From Candidatus Sulfomarinibacteraceae bacterium (GTDB taxonomy: Bacteria; Acidobacteriota; Thermoanaerobaculia; Thermoanaerobaculales; Sulfomarinibacteraceae): a stretch of DNA of 64,000 nucleotides. Position 1 is the stretch's first letter. Each line of letters begins with the position of its first letter. Shown piece by piece: positions 7,364-64,000 of this stretch. A program made the position numbers and the translations under genes. The stretch covers positions 448,001-512,000 of the forward strand of contig CAWCLO010000001.1 in assembly GCA_963796455.1 (NCBI GenBank), in the 5' to 3' direction. Under the pieces are notes generated by a model. The model had not been told where the DNA came from. It saw only the letters and a list, made by a program, of their open reading frames with translations, and made no database searches.

Positions 7364-7377
7364 ACAAGCATCGCTGG

Positions 7378-7617
7378 TCTCAGAGTCCAAGTTGCAACGA
7401 CAGCGACAGTGTCCAGCGACCGCAACGGAGAGCAGCGACCGGGAACAGCGATCAGTGTGCAGCGGTCAGGAGTCCAGTTCTCCGAACCAGTCAGACTGAA
7501 CGCGCGCTCTGATCGCAGTCGCTGAAAACTGTTCGCTGCCCCTGTTCGCTGTCGCTGTTTGCCGTTGCCTGTCGCTGTCCATGAACCCTTTACGAGACCC
7601 TGTCTTGGACACGAGTG
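7378..7617 (+). mobile_element. Internally deleted copy of the CACT-TIR / four-helix-bundle element (arms only)
   Basis: CAGCGA-rich left arm and TCGCTG-rich right arm; ends TGTCTTGGACACGAGTG, then AT and (CCAGCAT)n. Confidence 0.65.
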
Positions 7618-22113: not shown

Positions 22114-22617
22114 CACTCCTGCCAGGTGTGAGTTCGGGCAGCGAACAGTGGCCAGCGGCAGCGGCAGAGAGCAGCGACAGCGACAGTTGGCAGCGACAGT
22201 GTCCAGGGGGCAGGGACAGCGAACAGTGGCCAGGTGCAGTGACGGCGAGGCCACCTCCGGGTCGTTCAAAAGAAGGGGTAGCCGGTGGGCGGCCGATTCG
22301 GTAGAGACCGATTGAACCACTGGAGAATCGCCTACGCCTCGGCCAAAGAGGTCGACAGCCACTTGGAACTCCTCGCCCACGCCGGGGCGATCAGCCCGAA
22401 GGGAGCCAGTGAAGCGATGCACGCTTTCGATCAAGTCCGCGCGATGACCTGGCGACTGTTGAACCCGACGAAGTGAGAGCTTTTCACCGGCGCTGTCGCT
22501 GCCCCGGCGCTGATTGCTGACGCTGGTGACTGAACGCTGCCGCTGACTCCTGCTCGCTGTCGCTGAATTCTGTCGCTGTCCCTGTACGATATCGAAACTC
22601 TGTCTTGGACAAGAGTG
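22114..22617 (+). mobile_element. Deleted copy of the CACT-TIR element retaining the 3' half of the four-helix-bundle gene (about 22291-22476)
   Basis: GRFGRDRLNHWRIAYASAKEVDSHLELL...WRLLNPTK matches the 63 kb copy; ends CACTCCTGCCA and TTGGACAAGAGTG; flanked by GATGCTG / CAGCATC arrays. Confidence 0.85.
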
Positions 22618-45278: not shown

Positions 45279-45730
45279 ATCTGTCGTCAAAGGCGGAGTC
45301 TCGGACATCGTTCAGGGACAGCGACGGGGATCGGCAGACAGCGACAGCGAACAGGAGTCAGTGGCAGCATTCAGTCATCACAGGCTGTCTTCGGCGACAG
45401 CGTTCAGGCTGGCTGTTCTGGAGATCTGAAATCATGACTTTGGGTTGACTACCCCTTCTGTTGAACGACCCGGAGGTGGCCACATCGTCGCCTGTACTCC
45501 TGACCGCTGCCCTGAACACTGATCGCTGTTCTCTGTCGCTGTCCCTGTTCGCTGTTGCCTGTCGCTGACGCTGGACACTGTCGCTGACGCTGCAATTCGG
45601 GCACGGGCATGGACGCGGACGCGGACGCGGGCGCGGGGCAATCGCCACCCGGATATCCGAAAAACCAACCCGTAAACCACGTGTTGTCAGGTGGGCAACT
45701 TCAATTGACGATTTGTTCTGGACAGCAGTG
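45279..45730 (-). mobile_element. Deleted copy of the CACT-TIR element retaining only the last codons (NPKS-stop) of the four-helix gene
   Basis: TCATGACTTTGGGTTGA joined to CTACCCCTTCTGTTGAACGACCCGG; right end TGTTCTGGACAGCAGTG then AT; flanked by ATTCCT[C/G/T] heptamers; left end degenerate. Confidence 0.8.
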
Positions 45731-47190: not shown

Positions 47191-47214
47191 AGGCCGGAGC
47201 CCGAAGAAGTGAAT

Positions 47215-47330
47215 GCTGTTCGCTGTCCCGGCCGCTGATCACTGACGCTGATGACTGATTGCTGCCGCTGACTCCTGATCTCTGTCGCTGTCCCCGAACG
47301 CTGTCCGAGACATTGTCTTGAACAAGAGTG
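47215..47330 (+). mobile_element. Solo arm of the CACT-TIR element
   Basis: Reverse complement CACTCTTGTTCAAGACAATGTCTCGGACAGCGTTCGGGGACAGCGAC matches the arm at 62891; followed by AT. Confidence 0.7.
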
Positions 47331-51639: not shown

Positions 51640-51893
51640 AAAATCTGTTGAACGACCCGGAGTTGCCCCGCCGTCCCTGCACCTGATCGCTGGCTCTGAA
51701 CACTGATTGCTGCCCCCTGTCGCTGTTTGCTGTCTTCTGTTCGCTGTCGCTGACGCTGACGCTGGACACTGTCGCTGCCGCTGCAATTCGGGTACGGACG
51801 CGGGACAACCGCATACCCGATAAACCAGAAGCCAACCCGTAAGGTGTCGTTCAGTGGGCAACCTCACATCATGATTCGTTTTGTACGGTAGTG
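51640..51893 (-). mobile_element. Diverged partial copy of the CACT-TIR element
   Basis: TCTGTTGAACGACCCGG, TCGCTG arm, GCTGCAATTCGG, CCAACCCGTAA and degenerate end GTTTTGTACGGTAGTG. Confidence 0.7.
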
Positions 51894-57366: not shown

Positions 57367-57739
57367 CACTCGAGTCCAAAAGAGTGCCATCGGACAGCGT
57401 TCAGGGACAGGGTCAGCGAACGGGAGTCAGCGTCAGCGTTCAGTCATCATCGGCCATCGTCGGCGACAGGGTCAGTCTGACTGGCATCGAGATCCGAAAT
57501 CACGACCTCCGGTTGAGCTAACGCCACGCCGTCACGGCACCAGATCGCTGCGGCTGAACACTGGACACTGTTGCCTGTCGCTGACGCTGGATCCTGACGC
57601 TGGACCCTGTCGCTGCCGCTGCAATTCGGGATCGGGATCGAGAACGTGCCAACCGCCAACCGAATATGCCAGAAACCAACCCGTAAACCACGTGTTGTCA
57701 GGTGAGTAACTTCATGACAATCTGCTTTGGACAGCAGTG
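57367..57739 (-). mobile_element. Deleted copy of the CACT-TIR element, flanked by AT on both sides
   Basis: CACTCGAGTCCAAAA ... TTTGGACAGCAGTG; shared 32-bp core at 57673-57704; GATGCT array at about 57307-57337 and GCATCC array at about 57742-57770. Confidence 0.8.
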
Positions 57740-58723: not shown

Positions 58724-61663
58724 TCAATTCGCCTGGCGGTGTTGATCGAGATTCGACAGCCTGTTCGACACATCCCGGTACGAGGGGTCGGCCGCCATCA
58801 GCTCCTGGAATATCTCTTGCGCCTGGTCGATATCACCGGCCGCTTCGTAAGCAGCTGCGAGGTCGTAGCGAAGCCCGATGCGGGCATCTTCAGAGAGATC
58901 GGGTGCCACCAAGGCCTTTTGATACCACTCCGCCGCCTCGGACCACATTCCCTGCTCCTGATAGCAGACCCCGATGGTCGCACAACTGTCGACAAAGTAT
59001 GCAGTGTCTCGCGACGCCACCTGAAATTCTCGAATCGCTTCGGGCAACAACCCCATCTCACGGTACGCGATACCGAGGTTGTAGTGGGTGTCCGAATCCT
59101 CTTCCGACAATTGTTCGGCAACGCCCTTCTGGAATTCCCGGAAGACTTCTTCCAATATCGCCTCGCCCTTGCCACGACCGGTCGCTTCGTCGACCATCGC
59201 CTCCTCCGCGGCCAGCTCCGCTTCGAGTTCCTTGGCGAGATCGATATATTGTTCCTCGTCCGCAAAGAGTTCTTCCGCACCCTCTTCGACGGCTTCGACC
59301 TGTCCGAGCAGAACCCCGACCTCCTTGAGTTTAAGCCGCCGTTCGACGACCTCCGGGTCCTCACCGTGTTCTTCTTCGAGCTTTGCCAACACACGGGCGG
59401 CGTCCTCGTAGAGATCCTGATCGATGAAGAAGTCGATCTGCTCGAGGTCTCCCATCGAAGGACCGACAAAGCTGTCGGTAATTTCGACCAACTCGTCCGG
59501 CACTTCTTCGACAACCAGAGGCATCTCTTCCACAACCGGCTGCGCCGGCTCTTCAGCAACAACCTGGGCTTCGGGCTCTTCGACGACCCGAGCCATTTCA
59601 GGCTCTTCGATCGCCACGATTTCGGGCTCCTCGGCTGTCACCGCTTCCGACTCGTCGACAGCGGCCGACTCGTCGATCTCGGCTGCGACCACCGGCTCTT
59701 CAGGCACGCTGGGCGGTTCCGGCAGATCGATCTGCTCTGCAACCGCCTCCACGACCTCGGCCGTTTCGTCGGCGACGCCCATCCCTGAAGCAAAATCGAC
59801 AGGAAACTCCTCGACTTCGAGCACCTGATCTTCGGCCGGCGGAATTGACATCTCACCTTCGATGTCCACGACCTCGATCAGATCGCTCTCTTCATCAACA
59901 AACTCGGCCGCCGGCGGTTCCGAGCTCGCAACAGCCTCGTCGCCGCCGGTCGAATCTTCCGCGAGCTCCACCGGTTCACCTGAAGTCACCAGTGTCGGGA
60001 CGTCGGCGTCAGCCGACGGGACCGATCCGTCGACGATTTCGGGTAAGACATTGACGAGGTCGGCCAGCTCATCCATCGAGTCCTGGGCACGATGATGCTC
60101 CACCAACGGTCCAGCCATCGAAACGGCCTTATCGCGGTCCCCCTGCTCTGCATACAGGAGAACCAGGCGTCGACGGGGCTCGAATTCATCCGGGCAAAAA
60201 AGGACCACATCCTCGAGATGGCTGACGGCTTTTTCTACCAGCCCGTACTTGGCAAAAACAGCAGCCTCGGCGAGCCGTTCCTGCAGATCGAACGAATCGG
60301 GCGCCGGAACCTCAGAACCCGACGGCGTCGATCGGGCGACTTTCTCGGTCTTTGGGGTCTCTTGGCCCGAAAGCGTCTCGGCTTCGATGACCTCGGCGAC
60401 TTCTTCTTCATCCTCTTCTTCATCGATCTCGATGACCTCGATATCGCCGTCTCGAAAGGTATCGTCGGTTCCGGGAGGCTGATGTACCTCGGCATTGACG
60501 CTATCGAGGGTCGACAATCGCTGCCGAAATTGCTGATTCTCGGGTTCGGTCTCTTGAACCTCGAGAAACAACCGCTTCGCCTTCTCGAGTTCTTTCGATT
60601 GGTAATAACTCTCAGCGAGTGCCGCCTTCAGGGTGAAAAGAGTTTCCGCCTCGTCGGAGGAGGCAAAGGCCCTGACGCCGAGCTGCAGAACCACCTGATC
60701 TTCAGGCAGTTCCTGAAGCAGATTTTTGAGCACGCGTTGCGCCTTTTTGGTCTTGCCCTTTTCGAGCATCGCCTCGATCACCGGGACGAGCATCTCGCGC
60801 GCTTCGTCGACCTCGCCTGAGGTCAGCAGCGCACCGCCCACCAGCGATCGCATCTCCGCGTTGTCGGGCTTCACGGCCAGAACTCTGTTGGCGATTTCCA
60901 TCGCCGCCTTGTTCTCGCCCATCGTCAGATGAGTGCGAACCAGTAGCGTGTTCAGTTCAACGTTCTCAGGCGAGGCGCCGACGGCCCAGTTCAGGAACTC
61001 GAGCACCACCGGAGTTCGGCCGGAGTCGAGAAAGACCTCGCAGACCTTGATCATGAAGTCGCCTTGCGGTGGATCCTGTTCGAGAACATGGCGATAGAGC
61101 CGCTCGGCCTCATCGAGCTTTTCAGCCTCGAGCAGCATCCCGCCGAGACGATCGTAGACTTTGAGAGCCGAATTGATTTCGCCCCGCCTCAAAAGGAGGT
61201 CGGCGAGCCGGAGCGCCGATACATGGTTCGACGGGTCCAGATCAACCAGCTTTTCGTGGCTCTCGATGGCCTTTTCGAGCTCTCCGTTTTTGACGTACCA
61301 ATCCGCGAGGATCTGATACTCGCGTTTCGCCTCGACCATCAAGCCCTGGTCAAAATAGAGATCGGCGAGGCGTTCGAAAATATCGAGGCGTTGCGGGTCC
61401 AGACGCTGAATTTTTTTCAGTATCGCGATGGCTTTGGTCGTGAACCCATCCTTGGTGAAATGGTCCGCGATTTCTTCGTACAACTCGATCGCACGCTGGA
61501 GCTGTCCAACCCGCCCGTACAGGTCTCCGACCCGGTTGATGATGGTCGTGTCGTCGGGAAAGCGCCTGCGGATCTTCTCGTACTCTTTGATGGCCTGCTC
61601 GAGCTTGCCCTTTTGGACCAGCTTTTCTGCATCCTTGAGGATCTTGTCCCGTTTTATGGCCAT
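58724..61663 (-). CDS. Large TPR-repeat protein with an acidic low-complexity linker
   Basis: N-terminal TPRs, E/P/V-rich middle, C-terminal THYNLGIAYREMGL TPRs. Confidence 0.85.
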   Translation of the reverse strand: MAIKRDKILKDAEKLVQKGKLEQAIKEYEKIRRRFPDDTTIINRVGDLYGRVGQLQRAIELYEEIADHFTKDGFTTKAIAILKKIQRLDPQRLDIFERLADLYFDQGLMVEAKREYQILADWYVKNGELEKAIESHEKLVDLDPSNHVSALRLADLLLRRGEINSALKVYDRLGGMLLEAEKLDEAERLYRHVLEQDPPQGDFMIKVCEVFLDSGRTPVVLEFLNWAVGASPENVELNTLLVRTHLTMGENKAAMEIANRVLAVKPDNAEMRSLVGGALLTSGEVDEAREMLVPVIEAMLEKGKTKKAQRVLKNLLQELPEDQVVLQLGVRAFASSDEAETLFTLKAALAESYYQSKELEKAKRLFLEVQETEPENQQFRQRLSTLDSVNAEVHQPPGTDDTFRDGDIEVIEIDEEEDEEEVAEVIEAETLSGQETPKTEKVARSTPSGSEVPAPDSFDLQERLAEAAVFAKYGLVEKAVSHLEDVVLFCPDEFEPRRRLVLLYAEQGDRDKAVSMAGPLVEHHRAQDSMDELADLVNVLPEIVDGSVPSADADVPTLVTSGEPVELAEDSTGGDEAVASSEPPAAEFVDEESDLIEVVDIEGEMSIPPAEDQVLEVEEFPVDFASGMGVADETAEVVEAVAEQIDLPEPPSVPEEPVVAAEIDESAAVDESEAVTAEEPEIVAIEEPEMARVVEEPEAQVVAEEPAQPVVEEMPLVVEEVPDELVEITDSFVGPSMGDLEQIDFFIDQDLYEDAARVLAKLEEEHGEDPEVVERRLKLKEVGVLLGQVEAVEEGAEELFADEEQYIDLAKELEAELAAEEAMVDEATGRGKGEAILEEVFREFQKGVAEQLSEEDSDTHYNLGIAYREMGLLPEAIREFQVASRDTAYFVDSCATIGVCYQEQGMWSEAAEWYQKALVAPDLSEDARIGLRYDLAAAYEAAGDIDQAQEIFQELMAADPSYRDVSNRLSNLDQHRQAN

Positions 61664-62732: not shown

Positions 62733-62890
62733 CTTCGTCGCCTCCAAAGGAATCCCGATCCGCCTGGGCGGTACCGGGGCGGGGAGTATACATGCCTTCC
62801 CCAGCGAGGACAAGGGGTCGCGGGCTGCCCGCAGGGAAACGGAACGGGTCCCGTCGTTCGATGCTCGATACTGGATGCTAGATGCTAGAT

Positions 62891-63755
62891 CACTGCTGTC
62901 CAAGACATCATCTCAGACAGCGATCAGGGACGGCGACAGCGATCAGTGTTCAGCATCAGCGAACAGTAGTCAGCGTCACGTTTGACTGGTATGGAGCCCT
63001 GAAATCAAGACTTTGGGTTGAGTAAACGCCAGGTCATCGCACGGACTTGATCGAAGGCCTTCATCGCTTCACCGGCTCCATTCCGGTTGACCGCCCCAGC
63101 GTGGACGAGGAGCTCCAGGTGGCTGTCGACCTCTTTCGCCGAGGCGTAGGCGATTCTCCAGTGGTTCGATCGGTCTCTACCAATCGGCCGTGCCCTTCTG
63201 CCAGATTCGCAGGGACCGAACTTGCCGACCGGATGACCTGATCGGCAATGGACTTCAGCGGAGCTGGAACCCTCATCACGAGCTTGATCGCGATTCCTGC
63301 TGCTTCGAGGGCTTTCGAGTGGGCAACGAGGTTGGTGGTCGTGGCGGCTGAGGAAATGGTCACCTCCGGGTCGTTCATGCCCATATCCACAAGCCGGTGT
63401 GGTGGCCGATGTCAAGGATGCCCTGCACCCTGCCTGTCCTTGACATCGGCCGCCCACCGGCTACCTATTCTGTTGAACGACCCGGTGGTGGCCACTTCGC
63501 CGACTGGACTCCTGATCGCTGCCGCTGGACACTGATTGCTGATCTCCGTCGCTGATCCCTGTCGCTGACGCTGCCTCCTGTCGCTGTCCCTGCACCTTGG
63601 ACGCTGTCGCTGCCGCTGCAATTCGGACGCGGACGCGGACACGGGCACGGGCACGGGCACGGACAACCGCGAACCGGATATGCCAAAAACCAACCCGTAA
63701 ACCACGTGTTGTCAGGTGGGTAACTTTTCGTGAGATTCTGTTTTGGACAGCAGTG
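62891..63755 (-). mobile_element. 865-bp element with terminal inverted repeats carrying a four-helix-bundle gene; no transposase
   Basis: CACTGCTGTCCAAGACA / TGTTTTGGACAGCAGTG (16/17 IR); AT on both sides; inverted CAGCGA / TCGCTG degenerate arms. Confidence 0.85.
63005..63378 (-). pseudogene. Four-helix-bundle protein (23S IVS-protein / Avd-like family) with a 1-nt frameshift at about 63182
   Basis: DQVIRSASSVPANLAEGHGR then IAYASAKEVDSHL in another frame; the 22 kb copy reads CGA TTC GGT where this one reads CGA TT GGT. Confidence 0.85.
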
Positions 63756-63757
63756 AT

Positions 63758-64000
63758 GCGAGATGCTGGATCCCACAACCACTTGGCAGAGGGGCACGGG
63801 GGGAGAGGGGCGGAGGACAGCCCGGCATCCTCGCTATCGCTATCGGGATCGCTATCGCTATCGAACGGCTGCTGTGGATATCGACCTCGAAAGGTGGAAA
63901 GGAGCCGACGGGAAAGGGAGAACCACTCGGCACCAATTTCTCCTAAACGCGAATGTCGCCTCCCGATGTCATCCTGAGCGGAGCCCGCCCTGGGGCGTAG
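63758..64000 (+). repeat. Second copy of the 9.4-9.7 kb composite repeat (GCTATC array and GTCATCCTGAG REP), running off the window
   Basis: Shares GCAGAGGGGCA, CTCGCTATCGCTATCGG.ATCGCTATCGCTATCGA, GAAAGGGAGAACCAC and GAATGTCGCCTCCC.ATGTCATCCTGAGCGGAGCCC with 9470-9684. Confidence 0.8.

Follow-up and report, generated by a model that had tools for sequence, protein, structure and literature searches.

A multicopy IS4-derived element without a transposase that carries a predicted hairpin and a four-helix-bundle gene in a Candidatus Sulfomarinibacteraceae bacterium

Several described systems come close to the element analysed here. MIC231 belongs to the IS231 subgroup of the IS4 family and, in the accessible part of the source (PMC6199540), consists of IS4-family inverted repeats around a passenger gene, exceeds about 700 bp in size, lacks a transposase and has been shown to be mobilised in trans. 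Another subgroup, IS4Sa, is set by ends of the form CA------T together with a target duplication of 8-10 bp (PMC2266710, available section). The intervening sequences (IVS) of 23S rRNA genes in Coxiella, Leptospira and Xanthomonas carry an open reading frame (ORF) for an S23p-family protein inside inverted repeats with short tandem units, and the idea that such proteins mobilise their own elements is old, having been proposed but never shown according to the accessible part of PMC4990558. The Avd gene of DGRs lies beside a structured non-coding segment (PMC10053308, available part). Insertion sequences (IS) that target REPs, such as IS621 and IS1594, insert into intergenic repeats (PMC3184786); intergenic repeats and REP-targeting IS, not the IVS-type cassette, are what the available portions of PMC2996986 and PMC3184786 describe. 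Among open papers, no description of the present element or of its combination of features was found.

We analysed a window of 64,000 nucleotides from the genome G000 (other G-labels denote genomes of relatives and L-labels individual loci). An initial annotation had drawn attention to an 865-bp unit with inverted ends, which was borne out at positions 62891-63755 (G000:C1:510891-511755), with the ends CACTGCTGTCCAAGAC and GTTTTGGACAGCAGTG and a terminal inverted repeat of 27 nt that is 89% complementary. Its hexamer arms are inverted as had been described, CAGCGA occurring three times in the left arm and never in the right one, and TCGCTG never in the left and five times in the right. The dinucleotide AT on both sides, in contrast, does not represent the target duplication. 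The real duplication comprises 9 bp (ATGCTAGAT at 62882-62890 and ATGCGAGAT at 63756-63764, 8 of 9 positions identical), and AT is visible at both ends because the insertion lies inside a GATGCTG-type heptamer array. When flank lengths from 2 to 17 were compared for 93 elements, a length of 9 stood out with an identity of 0.76, compared to 0.49 for shuffled pairs. For the 30 elements with non-periodic flanks, 9-mers matched at 0.70 versus 0.32 after shuffling (shuffled maximum 0.41), whereas 2-mers matched at 0.43 and stayed within the shuffled range (maximum 0.48), so that a 2-bp duplication was rejected. The element is located upstream of the rplS promoter and outside the operon, in a spacer dense with other repeats (Table 1). 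From 63756 to 64000, and on to G000:C1:512268, there is a repeat nest with ATCGCT hexamers, a long GTCATCCTGAGCG...GAAGGATCT palindrome and octamer runs AAAGGGAG and CTCTGCTC. Elsewhere in the window (58724-61663, minus strand), a 979-aa ORF downstream of rnhB appears to encode a TPR-rich protein with a long acidic middle.

Table 1. Features of the 865-bp element, its surroundings and related copies in the window.
Positions	Strand	Feature	Basis
62785..62813	-	Predicted rplS promoter TTGTCC-17-TATACT, kept in relatives	
62860..62890	+	Left part of the target heptamer array (GATGCTG-type), with one copy of the 9-bp duplication at 62882-62890	
62891..62917	+	Terminal inverted repeat from IS4 left end, downstream of the gene	
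62916..62975	+	Downstream hexamer arm, CAGCGA-type on the plus strand, complementary to the upstream arm	
63005..63357	-	Four-helix-bundle gene PF05635/TIGR02436; 117 aa where intact, pseudogene here	
63353..63498	-	Conserved nested hairpin; outer stem formed by 63474-63498 and 63353-63377	
63505..63665	+	Upstream hexamer arm, TCGCTG-type on the plus strand, plus GCACGG-type hexamer run	
63670..63755	-	About 85 bp from IS4 right end, including terminal inverted repeat	Alignment to L012 right end
63756..63772	+	Right part of the heptamer array, with the other copy of the 9-bp duplication (8/9 identical)	
7377..7617	+	Partial copy lacking the gene, with a left-type end at 7617	
22115..22617	+	Partial copy, 3' half of the gene kept after internal deletion	
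45279..45730	-	Gene-less copy, two ends, another heptamer array	
47197..47330	+	Partial copy, one end	
51644..51893	-	Partial copy, one end (right-type)	
57367..57739	-	Gene-less copy, two ends	

The single four-helix-bundle ORF reported for the element is a PF05635 gene, but not an intact one: the domain is split across two frames and falls below the Pfam cut-off, one base is missing near 63182 and the ATG of the family reads ATT at 63355-63357. The six partial copies that had been noticed in the window exist at their places and in both orientations, but the family is much larger than these seven members. A BLASTN search gave 235 loci in G000, and with a profile search the number rose to 278 merged loci that together span 112 kb. 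Gene-less copies make up the majority of loci, and 17 of 58 short ones form one family; the 100 matches to the ORF comprise 58 intact copies, 6 with a frameshift and 36 partial ones. A left end could be paired with 95 right ends, and the 93 pairs shorter than 900 bp fall mainly into two size classes, about 340-630 bp and 817-895 bp. The view that copies are intergenic holds as well, since none of the 278 loci lies wholly within a gene predicted by our own crude codon-score finder. Nine partial ORF copies (for example at 22115-22617 of the window) start at ORF position 168, a common deletion junction. At L013 (G000:C3:12441-14068) an IS, which we take to be of IS481 type from its N-terminus, is inserted within a cassette copy; the ORF behind the end at C3:12441 belongs to this separate IS and was rejected as the transposase of the family.

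The absence of a transposase from element and window extends to the genome, as no matching IS4 transposase was found in G000 (90.5% complete), nor in G006. Querying G000 by tblastn with both parent transposases gave a sole match with E=0.34. No autonomous copy was found in G000, where the two long end pairs (1960 and 2168 bp) represent nested ends, and the lone PF01609 transposase of this genome (353 aa, in an IS at L001:1284-2678) was rejected as a partner, its 30-bp inverted ends being unrelated. The transposase bounded by the same ends that the initial annotation had proposed to look for was found in a congener: a DUF4372 search of 25 genus genomes returned a single one, in element L012 of G017. 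This element of 1411 bp encodes a DUF4372 plus DDE protein that matches NF033592 with 251 bits (cut-off 115) and whose motif, by residue spacing, is presumably of the YREK type. Its ends align with both cassette ends, the right end over about 75 bases with the first 18 exact, and the CA------T form of the cassette ends is common to this intact IS4 element. Because of this match, the shell of the 865-bp element, judged from its sequence, is an ordinary non-autonomous derivative of an IS4Sa-type element with captured cargo. An ordinary MITE with captured cargo is what the annotation had foreseen if the ends matched a known IS, and this applies to the shell, whereas the cargo remains unusual. Ends and duplication are like those of IS4Sa; the window element differs in having no transposase (PMC2266710, available section). 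Compared with MIC231, it shares the IS4-family inverted repeats around a passenger gene, the size and the lack of a transposase; in contrast to MIC231 as described in the accessible part of PMC6199540, its ends are of IS4Sa rather than IS231 type, there are 58 intact copies per genome, a version with ISL3 ends exists, the cargo has its own repeat arms and hairpin, and insertion is targeted to tandem arrays. Scanning the collection with the 20-base end gave 19 loci. Among them were the start of an IS4 transposase in Nitrospira and MITEs of 124-410 bp that lack the gene, several of the latter with clean 9-bp duplications; named records with the end sequence are mostly Candidatus Sulfomarinibacteraceae and other Thermoanaerobaculia-like genomes. 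Since gene-less MITEs with these ends have clean duplications, the protein is dispensable in cis for transposition. A MITE-like element moved in trans, as had been suggested, is thus backed by the IS4 ends in G017, the 9-bp duplication and the empty orthologous sites described below.

The cargo, which consists of the hexamer arms, the covarying hairpin and the TIGR02436 gene, is found in other settings as well. In G006 the cassette occurs in the IS4 shell, and in G014, G008, G016, G005, G020 and G021 it lies within ISL3 ends with 8-bp duplications. These ends, GG(C/T)TCATCCGG, are carried by intact ISL3 elements, and the sites are AACGTT-type octamer arrays. No IS ends were seen on cassettes L010, L067, L075 and L133-L135. 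Out of 14 further genomes in the family, 9 gave a match to the hairpin (6 genera), as against none of 106 sampled outside it. The occurrence in 6 genera with IS4 ends, ISL3 ends or none shows that the cassette is older than the shell. Full-length genes number 0-65 per genome and are present in 18 of 25 genus members; the other seven have no full-length match, two of them being 95% complete, so the gene is dispensable to the host. Four unrelated four-helix-bundle genes of G000 (L014-L017) are likewise situated between inverted 6-, 7- or 8-base arrays, wedged between genes, and for this reason the cargo can be placed in a wider class. At L080:948-3186 an intact ISL3 element is followed by a cassette that closes with a third ISL3 end, possibly a composite unit of transposase and cargo.

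Insertion occurs in phase with short tandem arrays for both shells, the 8- or 9-mer being near-palindromic. The consensus target is AT(C/G)CNG(G/C)AT. Reconstructed empty sites had a period of 7 or 8 in 52 of 93 cases, compared to 5% of random intergenic points. Intact parents of the IS4 and of the ISL3 kind sit in such arrays too, hence array targeting is independent of cargo in cis; we infer that it reflects target preference of the transposases together with survival in harmless spacers. Similar insertion into intergenic repeats is known for REP-targeting IS, but here, within a single genus, two DDE families that are unrelated to each other insert into degenerate 7- and 8-base tandem arrays, unlike what the available part of PMC3184786 describes for IS621 and IS1594. 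The whole genome G000 contains 469 period-7 and 341 period-8 arrays, compared to 1-56 for periods 5, 9, 10 and 11. An element end is touched by 69 of the 469 heptamer arrays and by 1 of the 341 octamer arrays, and 53 of 116 heptamer arrays of such type have no element end nearby. An origin of the arrays as stacked target duplications fits the 8-base arrays and not the 7-base ones. A second gene-less family, with about 100 bp between inverted GATGCTA-type heptamer arms into which the IS4 cassette inserts, was seen at G000:C1:1067870, C7:100638, C7:103116, C8:37083 and C10:485451.

Comparison of orthologous loci, the check that had been suggested for mobility, revealed filled and empty sites between species. 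From 23 congeners with rplS, 18 of them located by motif, 16 provided at least 1.5 kb of upstream sequence, and in none of these 16 was the cassette present; their rplS upstream regions contained one gene-less hexamer-arm piece and, in several cases, other repeat hairpins or a compact spacer. Among 50 cassette loci of relatives, 22 had two-sided synteny to G000, where 13 of the sites are empty and 9 occupied. Vertical inheritance at the 9 shared sites was rejected, as 5 have the same and 4 the opposite orientation, which favours repeated insertion; also, 9 filled sites out of 22, compared to 235 of 2348 spacers occupied overall, point to repeated use of the same spacers. Four DNA sequencing runs contained mostly other copies, no piece across the site and no clean empty-site joint, and within the species no empty allele was seen in them.

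The outer stem of the hairpin (about 20 bp) is near-invariant in ten species and covers the GGAGGT ribosome-binding site (63362-63367) as well as the start codon. In the inner stem, 7 of 26 pairs are changed on both sides between species; for the whole hairpin this holds for 10 of 56 pairs, a value reached by 0 of 500 shuffles. Long stems are predicted for the window copy with a folding z-score of -11, and removing the 5' arm raises the predicted probability that the ribosome-binding region is unpaired from 0.16 to 0.44. Recombination of the arms at the DNA level, as in the flipped apex of L075, can mimic the covariation, which may therefore arise from exchange between arms rather than from RNA structure; within G000, 1 of 8 double changes keeps the hairpin pair. 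A search of Rfam with the cassette RNA gave no match at gathering score and five weak ones far below it, and a search for an internal promoter found TTGACA in both inner arms but by eye no conserved -10 element.

The protein of an intact relative matches TIGR02436 with 62.8 bits (cut-off 24) and is predicted to fold into four helices (pLDDT 93.5). Its model superimposes with a TM score of 0.82 on Xcc0516 (2GSC) and of 0.79 on Avd (4DWL, 10% identity), and BT_0352 was also matched. As 2GSC and 2RLD have five chains each, the protein is likely a pentamer. PF05635 proteins are widespread and, to our knowledge, have no established function outside DGRs. The cassette resembles Avd of DGRs in this fold and in the position of the gene beside a structured non-coding segment, but it differs in the low identity, in the absence of a reverse transcriptase from G000 and in that neither a template or variable repeat nor a clear adenine-specific change was seen (comparison with the available part of PMC10053308). 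PF00078 gave 0 matches in G000 and matches in 11 of 25 genus genomes, and a reverse-transcriptase route was rejected in G000 for lack of the enzyme; A sites differ in 0.25 of copies versus 0.14-0.17 for C and G sites, a comparison that involves only 9 sites. Eleven reverse-transcriptase matches in G006, several of them equal in length, are probably group II introns. With the 23S IVS the cassette shares an S23p-family protein inside inverted repeats with short tandem units, but it is intergenic and bounded by IS ends, and its ORF is conserved whereas that of Coxiella is decaying (PMC4990558, accessible part). The one 23S rRNA of G000 has no IVS, its 3011 nt giving an end-to-end match to RF02541.

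Pairwise comparison of the 58 intact copies, with terminal and internal branches pooled, gave pS 0.27, pN 0.047 and dN/dS 0.145; for nearest neighbours the values were 0.17, 0.027 and 0.157, and partial copies had a dN/dS of 0.32. Along 33 full-length copies (34 aligned rows, one poorly aligned and dropped), diversity amounted to 0.01-0.05 for the hairpin stems, 0.13-0.19 for the IS ends and 0.21-0.31 for the arms; within codons it was 0.04-0.06 for positions 1-2 and 0.20 for position 3. Residues constant in 15 copies from other genomes were changed in 18 of 2726 codons of intact copies versus 29 of 490 in partial ones (p=3e-13), and in 4 of 282 codons of frameshifted copies, where relaxation is not significant (p=0.14). 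In-frame stops were absent from 64 near-full copies and numbered 3 in partial copies. The 25 intact copies that miss an end are as constrained as others (0.18-0.21). These substitution patterns indicate that the gene is under purifying selection which is relaxed once the gene is broken; near-neutral singleton changes (pN/pS 0.59) and the non-significant result for frameshifted copies speak against this. Copies recombine freely: r2 among 20 common alleles was 0.024 compared to 0.017 under independence, with linkage falling with distance. Duplications around the 33 intact two-ended copies are 0.71 identical and are perfect in young copies. L054 has a decayed end, yet its interior is 99.5% identical to another locus. 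Copy interiors are likely refreshed by conversion, which makes duplication decay a weaker clock. Of the 13 two-ended copies in G008, 9 make up a young clade with intact genes, each 98.9-100% identical to a neighbour (perfect duplication in 5 of 9, one decayed end), and most G006 copies are 97-99% alike, although copies of relatives were chosen as best matches, which biases intactness upward.

An explanation to which we give an even chance is that a transposase-less IS4 derivative is moved in trans into heptamer repeat arrays and carries an older cassette whose protein favours copying of this cassette in cis. An IS4Sa-type element with these ends resides in the genus, and insertions have 9-bp duplications; the cassette, known from 6 genera with IS4 ends, ISL3 ends or none, predates the shell; both shells land in phase in near-palindromic short tandem arrays; and resident copies exchange sequence, the intact ones keeping protein and hairpin as ends and duplications decay. 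Taken jointly, these four steps are very probable. For the last step we are tentative and put it somewhat below an even chance: the hairpin would keep the gene off in read-through RNA; after opening or cleavage of the hairpin, the protein, with its Avd fold and probably pentameric, would bind its own structured nucleic acid, and the copy concerned would become a more effective donor in transposition or gene conversion. Transposition in trans would found sites and conversion would homogenise the copies. A role of the protein in spread gains indirect support from the 58 copies under purifying selection, the sweeps of gene-intact variants in two shells and the dispensability for the host. An advantage in cis is the simplest account of why protein and hairpin are kept in a gene that some congeners lack and that exists in dozens of redundant copies, and it would also explain the double capture by two IS families; we put its chance somewhat below even. 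Rather doubtful is the narrower proposal of a selfish drive module, in which the Avd-like protein would bind its own hairpin and bias transposition or conversion to intact copies, and which would therefore have been captured by two unrelated transposon shells and have swept through genomes.

Selection might instead act at the level of the host on each copy. If missense proteins poisoned mixed pentamers and null alleles were harmless, the cassette could be a passenger with a small host role, and it would be understandable that nulls are common (6 frameshifted copies, 36 partial ones and most loci gene-less) and missense changes purged. The closest structure, 2GSC, is indeed a pentamer of five chains (PMC10053308, available part), and a duplication identity of 0.71, comparable to the synonymous divergence of 0.17 per copy, is as expected for long residence. 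We nevertheless regard this as unlikely, because it gives no account of the capture by two IS, of the sweeps of intact variants or of the absence from 7 of 25 genomes, and in-frame stops, which are nulls too, are missing from all 64 near-full copies. A passive passenger, in which host selection acts on one or a few source copies whose sequence is spread by transposition and unbiased conversion, with all other copies functionless, would agree with the free recombination, the near-neutral singletons and a dN/dS of 0.32 in partial copies, well below 1. It is improbable all the same: no master lineage is visible, nearest neighbours differ at 17% of synonymous versus 2.7% of non-synonymous sites, and unbiased conversion would spread broken alleles as well.

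Equally improbable, in our judgement, is a self-neutralising insert of the IVS kind, which implies a lower cost of insertion and not driven copying. RNase III would cut the stems from host transcripts and the protein would aid in processing or protecting this RNA at its own locus. The RNase III gene is present in G000, the hairpin has a z-score of -11, and in Coxiella RNase III excises an IVS that contains heptamer repeats and whose SD region is lost (PMC4990558, accessible part). Against such an insert, only 7 of the 58 intact copies have same-strand genes on both sides and run in sense with them, the 23S rRNA of G000 is free of an IVS and the window copy is upstream of the rplS promoter. Intact copies tend to avoid a same-strand downstream gene, the gene downstream of the cassette being on the opposite strand in 42 of 58 intact versus 27 of 58 gene-less copies (p=0.008). 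This counts in favour of the IVS-like insert, but the avoidance of pointing into the downstream gene is explained poorly by every model, including copying favoured in cis.

In summary, the shell is of a known kind, and no open paper was found to describe an IVS-type cassette that combines two kinds of IS shell with targeting of arrays and purifying selection across the family. Two unrelated IS families converge on short tandem arrays for landing. The ends and target arrays of the element that contains the gene are defined and two cognate transposases are identified; together with measurable selection and natural wild-type, frameshift and deletion alleles, this makes the question of mobilisation directly testable. 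If the drive reading were true, it would provide the first function of a PF05635 protein outside DGRs and strengthen the long-standing proposal that the ORFs of rRNA intervening sequences are mobility factors.
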